53,116 nt of DNA from a virus: IMG/VR virus record IMGVR_UViG_3300038321_000021, positions 1-53,116 of that record; one strand, given 5' to 3'. This document shows positions 37,898 to 50,155 of the stretch, piece by piece (the first letter of the stretch is position 1; the number at the start of each line of letters is the position of its first letter). The notes beneath the pieces are model-generated. The model was not told the DNA's origin. It made no database searches and saw only the letters and a program-made list of their open reading frames with translations. Position numbers and translations under genes: made by a program.

Positions 37898-40747
37898 TCA
37901 CTCCTTTCCTTTCAAGTATTTTAATACTGTGGTCGACGATACACCAAGAGCATTGGCTATGTCTTTAGTTGTGTAACCAGAAGCTTTCATAGATGCAATT
38001 CGATTAATCTTAGCTGTGCTCAAAGAATTAGTGGTTCTCGGTGTGGCTCGCTGTCTAAGATCATCTATATCGACGTTATTGAGAATCTGGGTAAGTCTGT
38101 TTTCACTAATAGCACCGGCTTGAATAGCTTCCCATTCACGGTCAGATATTGTAACGGGTAACCTCTTGGCACCGACAATAGCCCGCGCCTTAGTTAACTC
38201 TTGTTGACCGAGTTTCTTTATTTCATTACGAGTTATGTCAGGGTTAGCCTGCTTTTTAGCATTGATGGCGGCATTAGCCATCAACTGGGCCTGTCTCTCA
38301 CGAGGTGCGTTTTTAAGGGCCACGTTAAGCTGGGACATAAGGTGGTCTACTTCTTCTTGATAAACTTTTTTAGCAGAGGAGGAGTACTCTATATTACCAG
38401 CCGTAACCATCTCCTTACGAGCCTGGTTGCCTAGGGCCTTCATCCGGTTGGCATATTCAGCGTAAACTCTTTCTGCCGGGGTGTTAGCGTCGGATACTAG
38501 TGTAAAGGCGTCGTCGGTTTCGGCCATCTTGGTAGATTGCTGTGTTCTAGTTTTTACTTTTCCTGTTTTGTCCACATATGTTTCCGCTGGTTTGTAAACG
38601 TAAGCACTTTTTGGTAAGGTTGGATCATACCAATCTTTATCCGCCTTATTGGCGACTCTATTGTATAGTAGAGCTCCTTCAGGACGAGTTGGATCGTACC
38701 AAGCCTTGTCTTTTGTATTAATTTTTGGACTGCCTGTTACTTTTAGTCTTGGTTCTTGTGATTTAGCTCTCGAGATTAAAGTAGCTGCTCCTTCTCTGTA
38801 TCGACCCTCTTTGTCATAGCTACCTTGATATTTTTTCTTAAGAGACGTTATATTGTTGTCAATCTCACTTTGTTTATAATCCAATTTATGTTTTTCAGCA
38901 TCGATAACCACCATGCTATGACGAACAGCTTTTGCTAATTCGTCTTGAGTGGCTCCTCTTAAAGTCATATCCGTAATTAGATTCGAAGCTTTACCCATTT
39001 CGGTTTGAGTATTACTCATAACCTTAATTTTTTTACCGTGACTATTATAATATTGGTCTCCTTTTTTTACAGTGCCGTAGCTCATTTTTGGGTCAAAATC
39101 ATCCAACCCATGTTTCGGGTCCATTCTAGTAGATGTGATTTTAACTTTACCCCCAGTGGGGATGACCATAACGGTATCACCATCAAAGTCGGCGCCAGAT
39201 AAACGATTAGCAACTTTACTGTTAATTCCGATAGCATCCGCTGGAGTGTTTCCTAAAATCCTCCGAGCTTCTGCTTGTTTATTATTAACGGTTAAGATTG
39301 GAATTTCAAACGTTCCACCATGAGGAAATCGTATCAAAGCAACTTGTTCCCCCGGTTCGAAGTTAGGAGCATAAACTTCGTTGTCTTTCATAGAGGTGAT
39401 AGGAAGTATTACCTGATACCTCTGACGGGGAAGGGCTGCCGCTTGTAGATGAATAGCCGCTGAATCGCAATCATCCGAAAACTTTTTTAACAAAACTTTC
39501 TTCAGCGTCGGATTCGGAAGTGACATAATTTCATCAAACTCTGCTTGTTTGTCGGCCGATGCTAGGTTGAGCTGTTTTTCTATCAAAGTTTTACTCTGTT
39601 TGGAAAGAAACTGAGAGGGAAGATTTTTGCTCCATTCGTCCCAATCGCCTTCTTCGGCTCTTTTATTGATTAAAGATAGTTGACGTTTCCCATCCTTGTC
39701 GATGTAATAACTTTGACCTCCTGCTTTAATTAGAGAACCGAAAGGATTGTCTGGATCTTTTTCAATGTTCTTTAGCACGTCACCTTTAGGAGTTCCTTGT
39801 TTTTTGTTGGTATTAAAAATAGCATCAACTCCATCTGGCATATTATCGGAGTATACAGCCATTCCTTTTATATATTTATTATCATCCACTAGAATACGAA
39901 CTTGTGCGTAGTGGGAGTTTCCTAAAGAAAGATCATCTACTCCTCTTCGAATCTCGACTACGCCATCTTTGTCATTTCCGCCTTCTTCCGCATAACGAAT
40001 CTTAATACGATTAGAATCCATACTCTTCGGATAGACAAAGGTATCAAAAGTGTCACCACCATCATGGGAAATATAATCTCGAAGAGAATGCACATTTTCG
40101 AGATTATAGATTTCTTTATGCTCGGTTCCCGGAGGACAGAGAACTTGGATATTAGTTTGTTTTCCGGGGTTTGTAACTTGGGGAACGCCGCCGCCATATA
40201 GTTCGTAACCCTCCATCTCTAAAATATAAAGAGCTTGTTTCATTTTTTCTCTAGAAATATTACCCAGCTCTCGTTCAACACCAACGCCAACATCGATCAT
40301 TCCTTTAGTGTCTACTTGTTCTTTGAGAAAATCGGCTACTTTTTTAGCTTGGTTCATACGGGCTTCGGAATTCTCATTTAACAAAGAGCGTACAGACGAA
40401 TCATTTTTATAACCCATCTTTTCAGCAATCTCATTCAGACTGTATCCTTTTTCTCGCAAACCTTTTGCAGTGTCAACTTGTAGCGACCTTCGCTCTGCGT
40501 TTGCTAAACTCACTTGTGTCCTAAATTGAGTCGAATCCAATCCCATAGATTTAGCAATTGCCATGTCGCCTTTCCAGGTCTTGCCGTCGTCATCTGTAAA
40601 AGTGAAGTTTTCTTTTCGAAGTTCATCCACACGACTCAAAAAATCACCGCTACGTTGAAAAGGGTTTTCGCCAGAACCCCAAGGATAACGCCCAGAACGT
40701 TTTGGCATACCATAATGTTTTAAAATATCTTCAGCAATGGGATTCAT
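37898..40747 (-). CDS. Single-polypeptide two-barrel DNA-dependent RNA polymerase (YonO-like) with N- and C-terminal HTH-like segments
   Basis: Beta-like barrel motif KYIKGMAVYSDNMPDGVDAIFNTN (aa 291-314). Beta-prime-like VALIRFPHGGTFEIPILTV...AIGINSKVANRLSGADFDGDTVMVIP (aa 468-530; ADFDGD codons at 39176..39193). HTH-like GYSLNEIAEKMGYKNDSSVRSLL and GYTTKDIANALGVSSTTVLKYLKG. Confidence 0.75.
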   Translation of the reverse strand: MNPIAEDILKHYGMPKRSGRYPWGSGENPFQRSGDFLSRVDELRKENFTFTDDDGKTWKGDMAIAKSMGLDSTQFRTQVSLANAERRSLQVDTAKGLREKGYSLNEIAEKMGYKNDSSVRSLLNENSEARMNQAKKVADFLKEQVDTKGMIDVGVGVERELGNISREKMKQALYILEMEGYELYGGGVPQVTNPGKQTNIQVLCPPGTEHKEIYNLENVHSLRDYISHDGGDTFDTFVYPKSMDSNRIKIRYAEEGGNDKDGVVEIRRGVDDLSLGNSHYAQVRILVDDNKYIKGMAVYSDNMPDGVDAIFNTNKKQGTPKGDVLKNIEKDPDNPFGSLIKAGGQSYYIDKDGKRQLSLINKRAEEGDWDEWSKNLPSQFLSKQSKTLIEKQLNLASADKQAEFDEIMSLPNPTLKKVLLKKFSDDCDSAAIHLQAAALPRQRYQVILPITSMKDNEVYAPNFEPGEQVALIRFPHGGTFEIPILTVNNKQAEARRILGNTPADAIGINSKVANRLSGADFDGDTVMVIPTGGKVKITSTRMDPKHGLDDFDPKMSYGTVKKGDQYYNSHGKKIKVMSNTQTEMGKASNLITDMTLRGATQDELAKAVRHSMVVIDAEKHKLDYKQSEIDNNITSLKKKYQGSYDKEGRYREGAATLISRAKSQEPRLKVTGSPKINTKDKAWYDPTRPEGALLYNRVANKADKDWYDPTLPKSAYVYKPAETYVDKTGKVKTRTQQSTKMAETDDAFTLVSDANTPAERVYAEYANRMKALGNQARKEMVTAGNIEYSSSAKKVYQEEVDHLMSQLNVALKNAPRERQAQLMANAAINAKKQANPDITRNEIKKLGQQELTKARAIVGAKRLPVTISDREWEAIQAGAISENRLTQILNNVDIDDLRQRATPRTTNSLSTAKINRIASMKASGYTTKDIANALGVSSTTVLKYLKGKE

Positions 40748-41585: not shown

Positions 41586-41656
41586 AAGTAGGCCTCCTTT
41601 CCTGTTTTTAGACAAACGAAAAAGAAAAAGTAAACGCCGGTCGCGTTTTATTCTTC

Positions 41657-41687
41657 TCTCTTCATAAAAGGGCATGTTTTTTTCGCG
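41657..41687 (-). promoter_or_regulatory. Promoter-like motif, divergent instance
   Basis: Minus strand CGCGAAAAAAACATGCCCTTTTATGAAGAGA closely resembles the 9637..9667 instance. Lies upstream of the nuclease genes. Confidence 0.4.
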
Positions 41688-41737
41688 TGGCTGTGATTGA
41701 GCAAAAAAAATGTGAAAATATACTGTTTTTACACTCG

Positions 41738-42067
41738 TGGCCAAATGCCCACTTATTTTGGCCATATCTATATATATCCTTAATCTTTTTATCACAGTTA
41801 ATAGAGAATAAAAGTGGGCAAGTGGGCTTTTCGTCCGAATAATTTTTCAAATCGGAGCAAATCGCCCAAAAACACCCAAAAAACGCCCAAAAAGGGCCGT
41901 TTTGAGAAAATGGACCCAAAATAAAAAGCCCACTTTCGTTTTTAAAAGTGGGCTTTTAGCCCACTTATTTGGCCAAAAAACCAAAAAATCGTCCGAACAC
42001 TCTCCAAAAATCAGCCCAATTTTTCACAAAACTCAAAAAGCCCACTTTGCAAAAATTAAAAGTGGGC
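41738..42067. promoter_or_regulatory. Iteron / operator array: 8 copies of GCCCACTT (both orientations) plus phased A-tracts
   Basis: GCCCACTT at 41747, 41928, 41959 and 42040. AAGTGGGC at 41812, 41820 (tandem), 41946 and 42060. Two pairs form hairpin-capable inverted repeats. CGCCCAAAAA / CACCCAAAAAA / CGCCCAAAAA repeat at 41861..41895. Confidence 0.7.
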
Positions 42068-42071
42068 AGAA

Positions 42072-42080
42072 ATTATATCA
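42072..42080 (-). promoter_or_regulatory. Extended -10 promoter candidate (TGATATAAT) firing into the iteron array
   Basis: Minus strand TGATATAAT. No good -35. The inverted repeat GCCCACTTT...AAAGTGGGC begins a few nt downstream. Confidence 0.35.
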
Positions 42081-42118
42081 ATTTTTAAAGGTTTACGGAC
42101 GAAATTTGCAAAAAGAAA

Positions 42119-42136
42119 GAGTCCTTGTTAGGACTC
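42119..42136 (-). terminator. Cassette hairpin plus T-run
   Basis: Minus strand GAGTCCTAACAAGGACTCTTTCTTTTT. Contains the stop of 42128..42415. Confidence 0.6.
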
Positions 42137-42415
42137 CTTCCATTCTTTTAATAACATTCTCATAATCTCTTTTACGGATTCTGATTGTTCGCTACGTTCT
42201 ATTAATCGATTTATATGAGCGTAATAGTCATCGGCTTGTTCCATATTACCAATTCGTCCCTCGATCATACTCACGGTCGATTCGCGAATTATTCCTAAAT
42301 CGCTCCGTTTCATGTCACGAGCTATATGATATTGGCCTATGTTTAGTAATGCCCTTATTGCTTTCATATAACTTCGATTAATTTCAGCTTGAGTTCTAAA
42401 AATCTCAAATCCCAT
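42128..42415 (-). CDS. Small hypothetical protein (95 aa)
   Basis: Start set to MGFEIFRTQAEINR behind SD AAAGGAGGAATTAATT. Ends ...EWKES with the stop in the hairpin. Confidence 0.6.
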   Translation of the reverse strand: MGFEIFRTQAEINRSYMKAIRALLNIGQYHIARDMKRSDLGIIRESTVSMIEGRIGNMEQADDYYAHINRLIERSEQSESVKEIMRMLLKEWKES

Positions 42416-42477: not shown

Positions 42478-42494
42478 GAGGGGATGAACCCCTC
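42478..42494 (-). terminator. Cassette-position hairpin, different stem sequence
   Basis: Minus strand GAGGGGTTCATCCCCTC followed by TTCTTTTT. Confidence 0.5.
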
Positions 42495-42638
42495 ATTTTG
42501 ATATCCATATGACTGATGTTAAATCATCCATTATATCAATTTGATAAGTATCTCCTCTATCTTCTAAAAATTTGGTTGCTATTTCCTTCGTTGCAAAAGG
42601 TACTTCCATTCCATCTTTAAAAAATGCTCCATAGCTTT

Positions 42639-42827
42639 CTAAAATTGCACTAAAATTGCACGGTCTTTTGAATCATCCATTAAATAGTTTTTCATTATTT
42701 TTTCCAAGGTATTACTCTTTAATTTTTTATTAAGTAATACTGCCGTTGTTAAAATAACAATAGAACCTCCAACAGATAACACAATAATTTTATGCTCCTC
42801 ATAAAACTTTTTTACTTTTTTAAACAT
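42639..42827 (-). CDS. Small membrane protein (62 aa)
   Basis: TM IIVLSVGGSIVILTTAVLL. SD GAAAGGAGAAAAATC. Confidence 0.6.
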   Translation of the reverse strand: MFKKVKKFYEEHKIIVLSVGGSIVILTTAVLLNKKLKSNTLEKIMKNYLMDDSKDRAILVQF

Positions 42828-42908: not shown

Positions 42909-42927
42909 GAGCCCTTGTTAGAGGCTC
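42909..42927 (-). terminator. Cassette hairpin variant plus T-run
   Basis: Minus strand GAGCCTCTAACAAGGGCTCTTTCTTTT. Confidence 0.5.
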
Positions 42928-42934
42928 AATCTTT

Positions 42935-43147
42935 TTACGGTTTGTTTTGATATTTTTTTACTAAAGCTTCGATATCATTATCTTTTTTACTTTGTTCGAT
43001 ATCAAGCTTATGTTTTGCAGCATCAACGACTATCCTACTATGACGGATTGATCTACTCATTTCTTCCTTTGTCGCGCCTCTTGATATCATATCTGTAATC
43101 AGATTGGAAATTTCGTCTATCTCTTTTGTACTTTTCACACTATTCAT
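42935..43147 (-). CDS. Small protein paralogous to RNAP residues ~586-643
   Basis: Start set to MNSVKSTKE behind SD GAAAGGAGAAAAGAAA. ISNLITDMISRGATKEEMSRSIRHSRIVVDAAKHKLDIEQSKKDNDIEALVKKYQ aligns with ASNLITDMTLRGATQDELAKAVRHSMVVIDAEKHKLDYKQSEIDNNITSLKKKYQ. Confidence 0.65.
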   Translation of the reverse strand: MNSVKSTKEIDEISNLITDMISRGATKEEMSRSIRHSRIVVDAAKHKLDIEQSKKDNDIEALVKKYQNKP

Positions 43148-43179
43148 TTTCTTTTCTCCTTTCAAAATATAAAAAGAAA

Positions 43180-43197
43180 GAGTCCTTGTTCGGACTC
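43180..43197 (-). terminator. Cassette hairpin plus T-run
   Basis: Minus strand GAGTCCGAACAAGGACTCTTTCTTTTT. Overlaps the TGA of 43196..43393. Confidence 0.6.
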
Positions 43198-43393
43198 AAA
43201 TTCTTTTACCATTATTAAATTTAGATTTGATTTTTTCAACAATCATTTCTCGATTACTGACAATATAACTTCCACCTATCAGAACCGCATAAACTGCCAC
43301 ATTAAGGATAATAATTTCCTTTCTATGTATTTTATTAAATTCTTTTCTAGGTTCCTTTACCATTGTTTTATAATCCTGAAACATTTCTTTCAT
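43196..43393 (-). CDS. Small membrane protein (65 aa)
   Basis: TM IIILNVAVYAVLIGGSYIV. SD AAAGGAGGAAATGAAAA. Confidence 0.6.
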   Translation of the reverse strand: MKEMFQDYKTMVKEPRKEFNKIHRKEIIILNVAVYAVLIGGSYIVSNREMIVEKIKSKFNNGKRI

Positions 43394-43408: not shown

Positions 43409-43438
43409 TTTAATAGTGGTTTCCATAATAGGAGGTGT
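43409..43438 (-). promoter_or_regulatory. Promoter-like motif, class A (consensus instance)
   Basis: Minus strand CGCGAAAATTACACCTCCTATTATGGAAAC, directly after hairpin 43459..43477. Confidence 0.5.
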
Positions 43439-43458
43439 AATTTTCGCGTAAAAAGAAA

Positions 43459-43477
43459 GAGCCCTTGTTTAGGACTC
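43459..43477 (-). terminator. Cassette hairpin plus T-run
   Basis: Minus strand GAGTCCTAAACAAGGGCTCTTTCTTTTT. Contains the stop of 43469..43753. Confidence 0.6.
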
Positions 43478-43753
43478 CTCCTTTTTTGTTTTAATACTTT
43501 TTTTAATAAGTAAAAAACTAATAACAGCGATTACTCCCGAAATGCAACCAACTGTAAGATATTTGTTTTTAGTAAAATTAGATCCTGTTTGGTAATCCAA
43601 CGACACGACCTCGATTAAATTATCTCTAGCTGTACCAACTATTTTAGTACCATCTAAATTTTTACAATCGAAATCCACCGCTGCCTCCGCTAGTTCTCTA
43701 AACTTACTGCCATCCAAGTTGCTTGCAAATTTTCTAAATTTTTTCTCTGTCAT
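43469..43753 (-). CDS. Small protein with C-terminal TM anchor (94 aa)
   Basis: Start set to MTEKKFRKF behind SD GAAAGGAGAAAATGAG. TM VGCISGVIAVISFLLI. Ends ...KKEES with the stop in the hairpin. Confidence 0.6.
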   Translation of the reverse strand: MTEKKFRKFASNLDGSKFRELAEAAVDFDCKNLDGTKIVGTARDNLIEVVSLDYQTGSNFTKNKYLTVGCISGVIAVISFLLIKKSIKTKKEES

Positions 43754-43868: not shown

Positions 43869-43991
43869 TTAACTATTATTTCTTAGATACCTAATCAGTA
43901 TCCAGATGAGCCATAGTCCGCCGGTTAACATAACTAGAATAAAATCTAGAAGTATACCAAATATACTACGCTTTTTCGTTCCTCTACTCAT
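43869..43991 (-). CDS. Small membrane protein (40 aa) translationally coupled to nrdD, not in supplied track
   Basis: ATGA overlap with the nrdD stop. MSRGTKKRSIFGILLDFILVMLTGGLWLIWILIRYLRNNS. Confidence 0.5.
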   Translation of the reverse strand: MSRGTKKRSIFGILLDFILVMLTGGLWLIWILIRYLRNNS

Positions 43992-46039
43992 AATTTTACC
44001 TCCTTATTTACGAATTTGTAAATCTCACTAACACCTACAAATCTCTCGTCAATATTTTTAATCCTGTTTCTAACAATGAGGGTAGGGGCTTGTATGATTT
44101 TGAGACTTGCTACAAGTTCTGGTTTGTCTTCTGCTAAAATTTTTACAAAATTGATTCCTGCGTTATTTAAAATCTTTTCAGCCTGGATACAATTAGGGCA
44201 AGTTTTTGTGCCAAATAAAGTAATGTCGTTGCGACAAGAAGCATCCATATCTATACGAGAAGTCGTATACACCTGTCGGTCTTTAAACTCCTGTACTTTT
44301 CCGTCATTCCAATTTTGGACCGGTCGATAATAACCAGTGATGCGACTGTAAATTTCTGTCTTCTCACCACAATCCGGACACAGGTCAACCTCCCCATTCA
44401 AATATCCGTGGTTCTTACAAATAGAGTAAGTGGGGGAGAGGGTGTAATAAGGAAGTTTATAGTTTTCAGCGATTTTACGAACTAGATTAGCAGCGGCTTT
44501 CCAATCTGGAAGCTTCTCACCAAGGAAGGCATGGAACACGGTGCCGGATGTGTATAGGGTCTGAAGTTCATCCTGGATATCAAGTGCTGAGAAAACATCA
44601 TCAGTGTAACCGACAGGAAGATGAGTGGAGTTGGTATAATAAGGAGTTCCGTTCTCGTTAGCAGTGATGATATCAGGATATTGCTTCTTATCGGACCTCG
44701 CAAAGCGATATGCGGTAGACTCAGCAGGGGTAGCCTCCAGATTATAAAGATCGCCATAGAGTTCCTGATAGTCGCTAAGTCGTTCCCTCATATGATTAAG
44801 AACCTCTTTTGCAAACTTTTGAACCCCCGGAGTAGACAAATCTTTGTGTAGCCACTTGGCATTTAGACCAGCTTCGTTCATACCCACGAGACCAATAGTA
44901 GAGAAGTGGTTATCAAACGTCCCTAAATATTGCTTAGTGTAAGGATAGAGTCCGGCATTCAGAAGCTTAGTGATAAATGTTCGTTTAATTTTGAGAGAGC
45001 GAGCCGAAATATCCATTAATTTATCTAACTTAGAATAGAAATCCTTTTCGTCCGAAGCCAGATAAGCGATTCTCGGCAAGTTAATAGTAACTACACCAAC
45101 TGAACCAGTGGACTCACCAGAGCCAAAGAATCCGCCAGACTTTTTGCGTAGCTCCCGCAGGTCAAGTCTAAGACGACAACACATGGACCGCACATCGTTG
45201 GGCTCCATATCTGAATTAACATAGTTTGAGAAATATGGAGTACCGTACTTAGCCGTCATTTCAAATAGGAGTTTATTGTTTTCTGTTTCACTCCAGTTAA
45301 AATCCTTCGTGATTGAGTAGGTGGGGATAGGGTATTGGAATCCGCGTCCGTGGGCATCCCCTTCGATCATGATCTCAATGAAGGCTTTATTAACCATGTC
45401 CATTTCCTTCTGACAATCGCCATAGGTGAAATCCATCTCCTTTCCGCCAACAATAGCAGGGAGGTTGGCCAGGTCGTTTGGAACTGTCCAGTCCAGAGTA
45501 ATATTACAGAAAGGTGCCTGCGTCCCCCAACGTGATGGAGTGTTAAGGCCAAACACGAAGGACTGTACACATTGCTTGATTTCTTTTTGGGTTAAGTTAT
45601 CCACTTTAACAAACGGTGCTAGGTATGTGTCAAAGGATGAAAATGCCTGAGCTCCCGCCCATTCGTTCTGCATAATGCCGATAAAGTTAACCATCTGATT
45701 ACAGAGCGTTGATAAATGACTTGCAGGAGTTGAAGTAATTTTACCAGCTACACCACCAAGTCCTTCTTGAATAAGCTGCTTCAAGCTCCAACCAGCACAA
45801 TAACCTGTTAACATAGACAAATCGTGCAAATGAATTGCAGCGCATTGATGTGCAATGGCAATTTCTCGGTCGTAAACATTCGACAACCAATAGTTAGCAG
45901 TTACAGCTCCGGAATTAGAGAGAATAAGACCCCCAACCGAGTAGCTCACTGTAGAATTCTCTTTTACACGCCAGTCGTTAACATGTATGTAGTCGTCGAC
46001 TAGCTCTTTATAGTTTAAAATATATTCATCATTTCTCAT
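43988..46039 (-). CDS. nrdD: Anaerobic ribonucleoside-triphosphate reductase (class III) fused to a C-terminal glutaredoxin/NrdH-like domain
   Basis: Zn site CKNHGYLNGEVDLCPDCG. Glycyl-radical motif SRITGYYRPV. Then ~90 extra residues with ITLFGTKTCPNCIQAEKIL...APTLIV (thioredoxin fold, CxxC). Confidence 0.9.
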   Translation of the reverse strand: MRNDEYILNYKELVDDYIHVNDWRVKENSTVSYSVGGLILSNSGAVTANYWLSNVYDREIAIAHQCAAIHLHDLSMLTGYCAGWSLKQLIQEGLGGVAGKITSTPASHLSTLCNQMVNFIGIMQNEWAGAQAFSSFDTYLAPFVKVDNLTQKEIKQCVQSFVFGLNTPSRWGTQAPFCNITLDWTVPNDLANLPAIVGGKEMDFTYGDCQKEMDMVNKAFIEIMIEGDAHGRGFQYPIPTYSITKDFNWSETENNKLLFEMTAKYGTPYFSNYVNSDMEPNDVRSMCCRLRLDLRELRKKSGGFFGSGESTGSVGVVTINLPRIAYLASDEKDFYSKLDKLMDISARSLKIKRTFITKLLNAGLYPYTKQYLGTFDNHFSTIGLVGMNEAGLNAKWLHKDLSTPGVQKFAKEVLNHMRERLSDYQELYGDLYNLEATPAESTAYRFARSDKKQYPDIITANENGTPYYTNSTHLPVGYTDDVFSALDIQDELQTLYTSGTVFHAFLGEKLPDWKAAANLVRKIAENYKLPYYTLSPTYSICKNHGYLNGEVDLCPDCGEKTEIYSRITGYYRPVQNWNDGKVQEFKDRQVYTTSRIDMDASCRNDITLFGTKTCPNCIQAEKILNNAGINFVKILAEDKPELVASLKIIQAPTLIVRNRIKNIDERFVGVSEIYKFVNKEVKL

Positions 46040-46088
46040 ATTGAGTTAATGTTCCTTTCCATGTATATATTTTTTTTAGAAAAAGAAA

Positions 46089-46107
46089 GAGCCCTTGTTC
46101 AGGACTC
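46089..46107 (-). terminator. Cassette hairpin plus T-run
   Basis: Minus strand GAGTCCTGAACAAGGGCTCTTTCTTTTT. Contains the TGA stop of 46099..46263. Confidence 0.6.
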
Positions 46108-46263
46108 CTCTTTTAATTGTTTAAGATTTTTGTTCATCCTCCTATAAAAATTGTAGTTACTAATGAGTATATCTCCTAAATCTTTAATGTACGTCACAGC
46201 CTTAATTACCAGATAAAATGGTAAATAAACCAAACCTACCATAAAATATAAGAAATTTTTCAT
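46099..46263 (-). CDS. Small membrane protein (54 aa), not in supplied track
   Basis: MKNFLYFMVGLVYLPFYLVIKAV...LKQLKEES. SD AAAGGAGGATTTTACA. Confidence 0.55.
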   Translation of the reverse strand: MKNFLYFMVGLVYLPFYLVIKAVTYIKDLGDILISNYNFYRRMNKNLKQLKEES

Positions 46264-50106: not shown

Positions 50107-50137
50107 TATTTTTTCTCCTTTCAAATATAAAAAGAAA

Positions 50138-50155
50138 GAGCCCTTGTTAGGACTC
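50138..50155 (-). terminator. Cassette hairpin plus T-run
   Basis: Minus strand GAGTCCTAACAAGGGCTCTTTCTTTTT. Contains the stop of 50147..50368. Confidence 0.6.

Follow-up and report, generated by a model that had tools for sequence, protein, structure and literature searches.

A small phage open reading frame homologous to the predicted bridge-helix and trigger-loop module of the phage's own two-barrel RNA polymerase

The DNA examined here, the complete 53,116-bp virus record IMGVR_UViG_3300038321_000021 with direct terminal repeats (hereinafter, the window), encodes a single-chain two-barrel RNA polymerase (RNAP) of 949 amino acids (aa) and, separately from it, a 70-aa product that is a copy of one segment of this polymerase (Table 1). 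The original prediction, made from the letters of the sequence and a list of its open reading frames (ORFs), held that this small ORF is a stand-alone gene with a strong Shine-Dalgarno sequence of its own, and both the ORF list and the sequence agree: its 70 codons run on the minus strand from an ATG at 43147 to a stop codon at 42935-42937, and AGGAG lies 8 nt 5' of the ATG. All genes of the region are on the minus strand.

The identity between the small product and RNAP residues ~586-643, previously put by eye at more than 50%, is borne out by BLASTP, which aligns residues 9-68 of the small ORF with RNAP residues 583-642 without gaps (34/60 identities, that is 57%; 82% positives; E = 4e-22). 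The homology begins at about Met1, for which the conserved Met577 may be the counterpart in the RNAP, and runs on to residue 68 of the 70, the stop codon falling 3 codons past the KKYQ motif. A six-frame search of the whole 53-kb record finds the module at only two places, the small ORF and the RNAP gene. The RNAP family provides the sole detectable homologues of the small ORF (residues about 568-633 of the PHROG 4291 family, to which the 949-aa RNAP belongs): the match covers positions 568-632 of 909, or 7% of the profile, with E = 3.5e-23, and neither PHROG nor Pfam has a family for the small ORF itself. Compared with PHROG 4291, all catalytic motifs are absent, and the invariant Met-Gly, Met612 and other residues are replaced. 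The copied segment begins some 60 residues after the catalytic loop and thus lies just past the DFDGD barrel, where it had been placed. The 70-aa product lacks DxDGD and its model is all-helical, without the two double-psi beta-barrels by which two-barrel polymerases are recognized. Because there are no double-psi barrels and no metal-binding aspartates, the small protein is incapable of polymerization.

The polymerase that contains this segment carries DFDGD at residues 520-524, matches the Pfam family RdRP (PF05183) weakly over residues 511-631, has helix-turn-helix (HTH) modules at both ends and is 48-55% identical to the 'putative RNA polymerase' of FP_oengus and to that of a human-gut phage scaffold. 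An AlphaFold (AF2) model built from an alignment of 39 homologues (predicted local distance difference test, pLDDT, 79) matches QDE-1, the Neurospora two-barrel RNA polymerase, and plant RDR2 best (Foldseek E = 2e-8), and VIA-align places model residues 242-781 on QDE-1 residues 684-1186 (Z 15.0, 371 residues aligned, root-mean-square deviation 4.8). Residues 240-781 of the model also resemble the minimal single-chain RNA polymerases that Thermus phages encode, namely P74 gp62 (PDB 8F5M, Z 13.7) and P32 gp64 (8F72, Z 11.2). A profile of the 39 RNAPs searched against PDB sequences matched HTH proteins alone and no polymerase; because this search missed QDE-1, to which sequence similarity is thus undetectable, the link between the phage RNAP and QDE-1 is structural and motif-based only. 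The 'phage 1706' branch of the YonO-like two-barrel polymerases (Ruprich-Robert and Thuriaux, 2010; PMC2919709) has been predicted in the literature and never biochemically tested (PMC2919709; bioRxiv 10.1101/842583). In GenBank, approximately 250 phages encode this polymerase, among them phages of Arthrobacter, Gordonia, Streptomyces, Lactococcus and Faecalibacterium, and prophages with it are common in the genomes of gut Clostridia. In a Ruminococcus sp. metagenome-assembled genome (JAJQEI010000013.1; L183:5674-6860), the polymerase segment lies within a 396-aa internal open frame of RNAP-type sequence, and the polymerase gene there may be split or frameshifted.

So what is the segment that has been copied? 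In the structures of QDE-1 (PDB 2J7N, 7Y7R/S), D1007/1009/1011 are the residues of catalysis, L1082, M1084, N1087 and R1091 of the bridge helix touch the template, and the trigger-loop subdomain (1102-1136) places V1115, D1116 and K1119 on the nucleoside triphosphate (NTP); the bridge helix and the trigger loop are rigid and packed on each other (PMC9508822). The phage RNAP displays D520/522/524, then M584-G585-x-x-S-N589, then I615-D616-x-x-K619, in the same order as QDE-1, with an Asn-to-Asp spacing of 27 residues compared to 29, and the overall spacing D524-N589-D616/K619 agrees with D1011-N1087-D1116/K1119 to within 13 residues. Both motifs fall inside the part of the RNAP that is structurally aligned to QDE-1, an agreement of ranges alone and not a residue-level superposition. 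From the motif spacing and the range of the fold alignment, we infer that RNAP residues 583-642 comprise the bridge helix and the trigger loop. No other part of the family is as well conserved (mean conservation 0.82 in the segment compared to 0.60 over the whole RNAP): across 39 polymerases whose identity otherwise lies at 46-82%, 26 columns of the segment are invariant. As in QDE-1, the module would directly follow the DxDGD barrel, with an Asn-bearing helix and then a helical hairpin with V/I-D-x-x-K, and would form a compact, mutually packed helical unit, of which the small ORF retains N15 and V41-D42-x-x-K45. In QDE-1 and in every described two-barrel polymerase, the unit belongs to the catalytic chain; in this phage, the module additionally exists as a separate 70-aa protein that possesses neither barrels nor catalytic aspartates.

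The structural models are compatible with this delineation. In the RNAP model, the segment consists of helices 580-596, 601-620, 624-630 and 633-641, and the AF2 model of the small protein (pLDDT 91) consists of helices 3-22, 27-46, 50-56 and 59-67; the borders of the small ORF match those of the four-helix unit in the RNAP model. The exact agreement of gene borders with domain borders in these models marks the bundle as an evolutionary unit, even should the small gene be a tolerated fragment. The suggestion that the segment is an independently folding, exchangeable module, which had been offered as an alternative to a regulatory role, is thus well supported, given the borders, the rigidity of the QDE-1 bundle and the recurrence of the module with the same C-terminal border (see below). 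Foldseek and VIA-align searches with the 70-aa model returned generic or designed helical bundles alone (best Z 8.1, the noise of helical proteins), and an ESM Atlas search with the small protein gave no usable match.

The divergence between the two copies is considerable. The small ORF and the corresponding segment of its own RNAP gene are 64% identical in DNA and 47% identical at third positions; the nonsynonymous divergence (dN) is 0.30 and the synonymous divergence (dS) is saturated. The dN/dS comparison that the original prediction proposed as a check on purifying selection therefore rules out a recent neutral duplicate and does not separate selection from relaxed constraint. The small ORF is nearly equidistant from all RNAP segments examined (32-37/60 identities), and these segments share 40-55/60 residues with the window's RNAP. 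The residues that are invariant in RNAPs are preferentially retained (20/26, compared to 14/34 of the variable ones; Fisher p = 0.008). Among those kept are N15, SNLITDM, GA, HS, V41-D42-A-A-K45 (the trigger-loop D..K) and the S..DN.I..L..KYQ pattern; the substitutions at RNAP-invariant positions are M584I, G585D, A607S, M612R, V613I and I615V. The cluster of the small protein at 90% identity includes five variants (P0001-P0005) with four amino-acid differences, all of them intact; the contigs that carry them number at least 12 and come from JGI, ENA and Logan. Judging from these comparisons, the small ORF is an intact, old, long-diverged and fast-evolving paralogue of one RNAP module, with signs of constraint on its core. 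That it is a real gene with a constrained fold, as opposed to an accident of annotation, seems to us probable.

Free-standing copies of the module are rare. No second copy was detected in approximately 330 RNAP loci with 5-6 kb flanks (IMG/VR, metagenomes and genomes), and a profile hidden Markov model run over all ORFs of approximately 345 loci recovered the RNAP genes alone. A degenerate DNA pattern for an ORF-specific stretch had no match in IMG/VR, and a word-indexed protein search with the 70-aa query returned only the query itself. Short-frame matches in four loci (L129, L151, L153 and L183) were rejected as free-standing copies, being RNAP-type sequences in broken frames. Second copies do occur in 7/250 GenBank phages with this RNAP, and the six that were identified are all Streptomyces phages, namely TieDye, Madamato, Psst1, Psst2, pSs2407 and pSt2402, of which four are confirmed members of Rimavirus, TieDye, Madamato and Psst1 among them. 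The Streptomyces-phage copies are 97-108 aa long, share 55% of residues with this segment in the RNAP of their own phage and are labelled in databases as 'HTH DNA-binding protein', as 'RNA-dependent RNA polymerase' or as 'hypothetical protein'. Like the small ORF of the window, they have lost Met-Gly, have kept D..K and evolve fast, and they have the same orientation and lie in a small-gene block 5' of the VRR-NUC/exonuclease/RNAP module. Unlike it, they lack 7 residues of the trigger loop and continue at the C-terminus into a tail of 40 residues, which in TieDye gp74 gives weak HTH-like matches in Pfam and PHROG (E-values 0.0008 to 0.01). The TieDye and Psst1 copies are 47% identical; the corresponding values are 89% for the RNAPs and 62-93% for most of the neighbouring genes.

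HMMER, run exhaustively against 1.84 billion representative proteins, yielded 783 matches at E <= 0.001, dominated by proteins of RNAP length, and the best 150 of these were classified. Within this set, Met-Gly precedes x-x-SNLITDM in every one of the 87 long proteins (500 aa or more) for which the motif was located, and there are 46 short proteins that have Met-Gly and extend 7-347 residues beyond the module; because the sequence continues past the module, these appear to be RNAP fragments from short or broken contigs. Eight short clusters among the best 150 are without Met-Gly: the window's own, P0006, P0007, P0040, P0047/P0155, P0057, P0058 and P0151. Six of the eight end 1-5 residues past the KKYQ motif. 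Their N-termini vary, from none through unrelated stretches of 35-50 residues or an upstream piece of the RNAP to a hydrophobic helix. The metagenomic contigs involved are 1-15 kb long, and the genes are candidates. Taken together, the loss of Met-Gly and the stop at the module border argue for a distinct class of free-standing proteins. The Asp that replaces Gly585 (ID, LD, VD) would cap the helix that now starts the protein.

Two of these clusters deserve separate mention. P0057 (108 aa, on a Logan contig of 3.4 kb) has an N-terminal hydrophobic, membrane-like helix fused to the module and matches the window's protein at 46% identity across 67 aa, the two having in common 'EID.ISNL' and a basic residue at the position of Met612. 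P0058 starts with a hydrophobic stretch, and its residues 41-128 matched RNAPs alone, at ~60-65% identity; searches for the loci of P0047 and P0058 recovered neither.

Did the small copies arise once or several times? A tree of the 60 aligned columns is poorly resolved. The copies of the Streptomyces phages form a clade (94/90) beside the RNAPs of these same phages (89/81), and in the unconstrained tree the window's ORF is found among the RNAPs of gut phages. Nevertheless, a tree in which the small copies are all forced into one clade is not rejected by the approximately unbiased (AU) test (p = 0.58) and even scores higher; long-branch attraction in the segment tree is likely. The Streptomyces-phage copies have 'SA.DNGI', as do actinophage RNAPs, and the window's ORF has 'KHKLD', as do gut-phage RNAPs. 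These lineage-specific residues would point to separate origins.

In the window, the small ORF belongs to a small-gene block between nrdD (43988-46039) and the VRR-NUC/exonuclease/RNAP module, in which most genes encode predicted membrane proteins. Promoter-like cassettes, which are conserved, and terminator hairpins, which are nearly identical, separate the genes of the block. The small ORF, described in the original prediction as lying inside a cassette-bracketed block, has no promoter-like cassette of its own and directly follows the hairpin of the upstream 65-aa gene. That gene is the first in the unit that holds the small ORF; its product has no Pfam or PHROG match, and tblastn over the loci examined returns it alone. 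The cassette 5' of the 65-aa gene, with a sigma-70-like match TTTACG-16-TATTAT, is the closest candidate promoter for the small ORF. The TGA stop of the 65-aa gene (43196-43198) lies within the first arm of the hairpin that follows, and the sequence of this hairpin is also seen at 42110-42140, 42909-42927, 43455-43480, 46086-46110 and 50125-50150. Terminator hairpins thus abut both ends of the small ORF, the downstream one closing the unit, and its leader recurs before three other phage genes. In lying between conserved hairpins with a shared leader, and in the variation of the neighbouring units among related phages, the small ORF resembles the promoter-gene-terminator mini-units (PeSL-like cassettes) of T4-type phages; unlike these, it is without a promoter-like cassette of its own and is the second gene, behind an internal hairpin.

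Table 1. Features of the locus and the Streptomyces-phage counterpart of the small ORF (positions in the window unless a locus is named)
Feature	Position	Strand	Basis or remark
949-aa single-chain two-barrel RNA polymerase (phage 1706 ORF75/YonO/QDE-1 type)	37898..40747	(-)	DFDGD, Pfam, AF2
RNAP-gene segment copied by the small ORF (residues 583-642)	38822..39001	(-)	BLASTP, own-genome search
Terminator-like hairpin, 8 nt past the small-ORF stop codon	42909..42927	(-)	Terminator scan, repeat family D1
70-aa ORF, free-standing copy of the predicted RNAP bridge-helix/trigger-loop module	42935..43147	(-)	ORF list, BLASTP, PHROG, AF2
Leader of the small ORF with Shine-Dalgarno sequence (TATATTTTGAAAGGAGAAAAGAAA-ATG)	43148..43172	(-)	Direct-repeat family D4, four copies
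Terminator-like hairpin GAGTCCGAACAAGGACTC + T-run, between the 65-aa gene and the small ORF	43180..43197	(-)	Terminator scan, repeat families D1/D3
65-aa predicted membrane protein, first gene of the unit holding the small ORF	43196..43393	(-)	ORF list
Promoter-like conserved cassette 5' of the 65-aa gene	43409..43457	(-)	Repeat family D2, four copies
TieDye gp74, Streptomyces-phage module copy	L017:3043-3348		Orthologues in L013-L016

The explanation that we put forward is that the small ORF encodes a diverged paralogue of the RNAP module that is free-standing, folds alone and acts in trans without catalysis; in our estimation, the chances that this is correct are about even. Under this hypothesis, the small protein would fold by itself as a small helical bundle and would act by binding. 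The target could be the phage's own two-barrel polymerase, the transcription by which would be tuned or shut off, or the polymerase of a competing related phage or prophage, or else whatever normally docks onto the bridge-helix/trigger-loop module. A role in trans that is directed at the RNAP, exclusion of other phages included, we regard as a tentative proposal that is rather unlikely to hold. The still broader scenario, under which the bundle was repeatedly set free as a trans-acting mini-protein within the 1706/Rimavirus/gut-Clostridia supercluster of phages, be it a transcription switch, a weapon or a decoy, appears doubtful to us. Small phage regulators of RNAP (T7 Gp2, Xp10 P7, P23-45 gp39/gp76) and the secondary-channel factors Gre and DksA act on the polymerase without catalysis, and by analogy the function of the small ORF would be of the same class, although no homology to these proteins was found here. 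To our knowledge, none of these regulators copies a polymerase domain, and all of them target the host multisubunit enzyme.

Several observations weigh against this explanation. The terminal branch of the small ORF is 1.34 substitutions per site long, compared to a median of 0.19 (about 7x). The Streptomyces-phage copies show pairwise dN/dS of 0.7-1.3 at 47-62% identity, when the RNAPs of the same phages are 89% identical, and such rates would be expected from an arms race and from relaxed constraint alike. The module copy is absent from 50/50 related IMG/VR records, 12 of which are at least 90% complete. Two relatives (L141 and L077; NrdD 85-86% identical, RNAP of L141 81%) keep the flanking genes and carry different small genes between them, with no module copy. 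The bridge-helix/trigger-loop assignment itself is by motif spacing and the range of a fold alignment. The QDE-1 module is held covalently and does not flex, and a free copy could not easily displace it. Finally, the alignment behind the AF2 model of the small protein consists mostly of RNAP segments, and its high pLDDT is no proof of autonomous folding. More generally, fast evolution combined with a conserved core would fit a conflict or regulatory protein and would equally fit relaxed constraint; the small ORF is dispensable and resides in a hypervariable, swap-prone block.

Given these observations, the rival to be taken most seriously is that the small ORF is a tolerated relic, a piece of the RNAP that was captured by illegitimate recombination into the cassette block and remains open by chance or under weak selection, without any function. 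The rarity and dispensability of the gene (absent from L141, L077, the 50/50 IMG/VR relatives and the ~330 RNAP loci), its very long branch, the near-neutral dN/dS (close to 1) of the Streptomyces-phage orthologues and the different gene content of the nrdD-to-VRR-NUC block in every relative are all in line with this possibility. However, at saturated dS the loss from a neutral copy should by far exceed 43% of residues, and the residues invariant in RNAPs would not be expected to be kept preferentially (p = 0.008); furthermore, the borders match a structural module instead of arbitrary breakpoints, several diverged clusters combine the loss of Met-Gly with a stop just past the module, the Shine-Dalgarno sequence is strong and the ORF is intact on the at least 12 contigs. 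On balance, we consider the relic unlikely, if far from negligible.

A second rival makes the free module a decoy, or sponge, that titrates a host defence protein, an inhibitor produced by a competitor or a small molecule directed at this surface of the polymerase. The retention of the surface motifs SNLITDM and D..K while the remainder changes fast, the typically fast evolution of conflict genes and the location among small accessory genes are what such a role would predict. Yet a pocket for NTP or an inhibitor needs the barrels too, and we know of no defence system aimed at this polymerase; the decoy is, in our judgement, quite improbable.

Exclusion between phages, whereby the module would bind, perhaps at the membrane, the polymerase of related phages entering the cell and block their early transcription, we view as a long shot of much the same order. 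This possibility is suggested by the annotation of the polymerase as 'structural protein' in phages 1706 and ReqiPoco6, such that it may enter the cell with the DNA, by the abundance in Clostridia of prophages with this polymerase, by the hydrophobic N-terminal helix of P0057 and the hydrophobic start of P0058, and by the neighbourhood of the small ORF, which follows a gene for a small membrane protein in one unit and has other small membrane proteins nearby. However, there is no membrane segment in the window's protein, the product of the upstream 65-aa gene is dissimilar to the N-terminus of P0057, and how the phage's own polymerase would escape is left unexplained. The Rosetta-stone idea that the N-terminal helix of P0057 is homologous to the upstream 65-aa gene was considered and rejected on account of this lack of similarity. 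That the small ORF is an ordinary HTH DNA-binding regulator, as the annotation of TieDye gp74 ('helix-turn-helix DNA-binding domain protein') and the weak HTH-like matches of its tail might suggest, is very improbable, given that the window's protein has no tail of the TieDye type, has no Pfam HTH match at E <= 0.1, finds no HTH fold among its Foldseek and VIA-align matches, which are generic helical bundles alone, and is explained over its whole length by the polymerase module.

The polymerase family and both elements, bridge helix as well as trigger loop, are already known. In the literature searched by full text, a separate gene for the bundle alone, beside an intact polymerase, is not described. 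Nor do we know of any described case in which these elements occur as a separate small protein alongside an intact polymerase. If the small protein folds alone, it would provide the module in a minimal soluble form, of use to structural and biophysical studies of a polymerase family never yet characterized biochemically; if it binds the polymerase, it would offer a new way to regulate or attack two-barrel enzymes. Should the broader scenario of repeated release be true, the bundle would represent the first case of a regulator derived by copying an active-site element of a polymerase itself. The homology also corrects the annotations 'RNA-dependent RNA polymerase' and 'HTH DNA-binding protein' that have been attached to such genes.

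Some minor observations concern the surroundings of the small ORF. In L141, the closest relative, the variable block includes an XRE-type HTH gene of 91 aa (L141:2276-2551) where the window has other small genes. The window ORFs 42639-42827 (62 aa) and 42493-42609 (38 aa), both on the minus strand, correspond to one 85-aa ORF in L077 (L077:2297-2554); either the gene is split in the window, or it is fused and truncated in L077. Closer to the VRR-NUC gene, on its 5' side, a gene-free stretch (41600-42127) contains repeated AAGTGGGC/GCCCACTT motifs and seems to be conserved at L141:2910-3490 and L077:3030-3520, where similar spurious ORF translations are found; the repeats and the apparent conservation point to a putative cis-acting element, such as an origin or an operator array.

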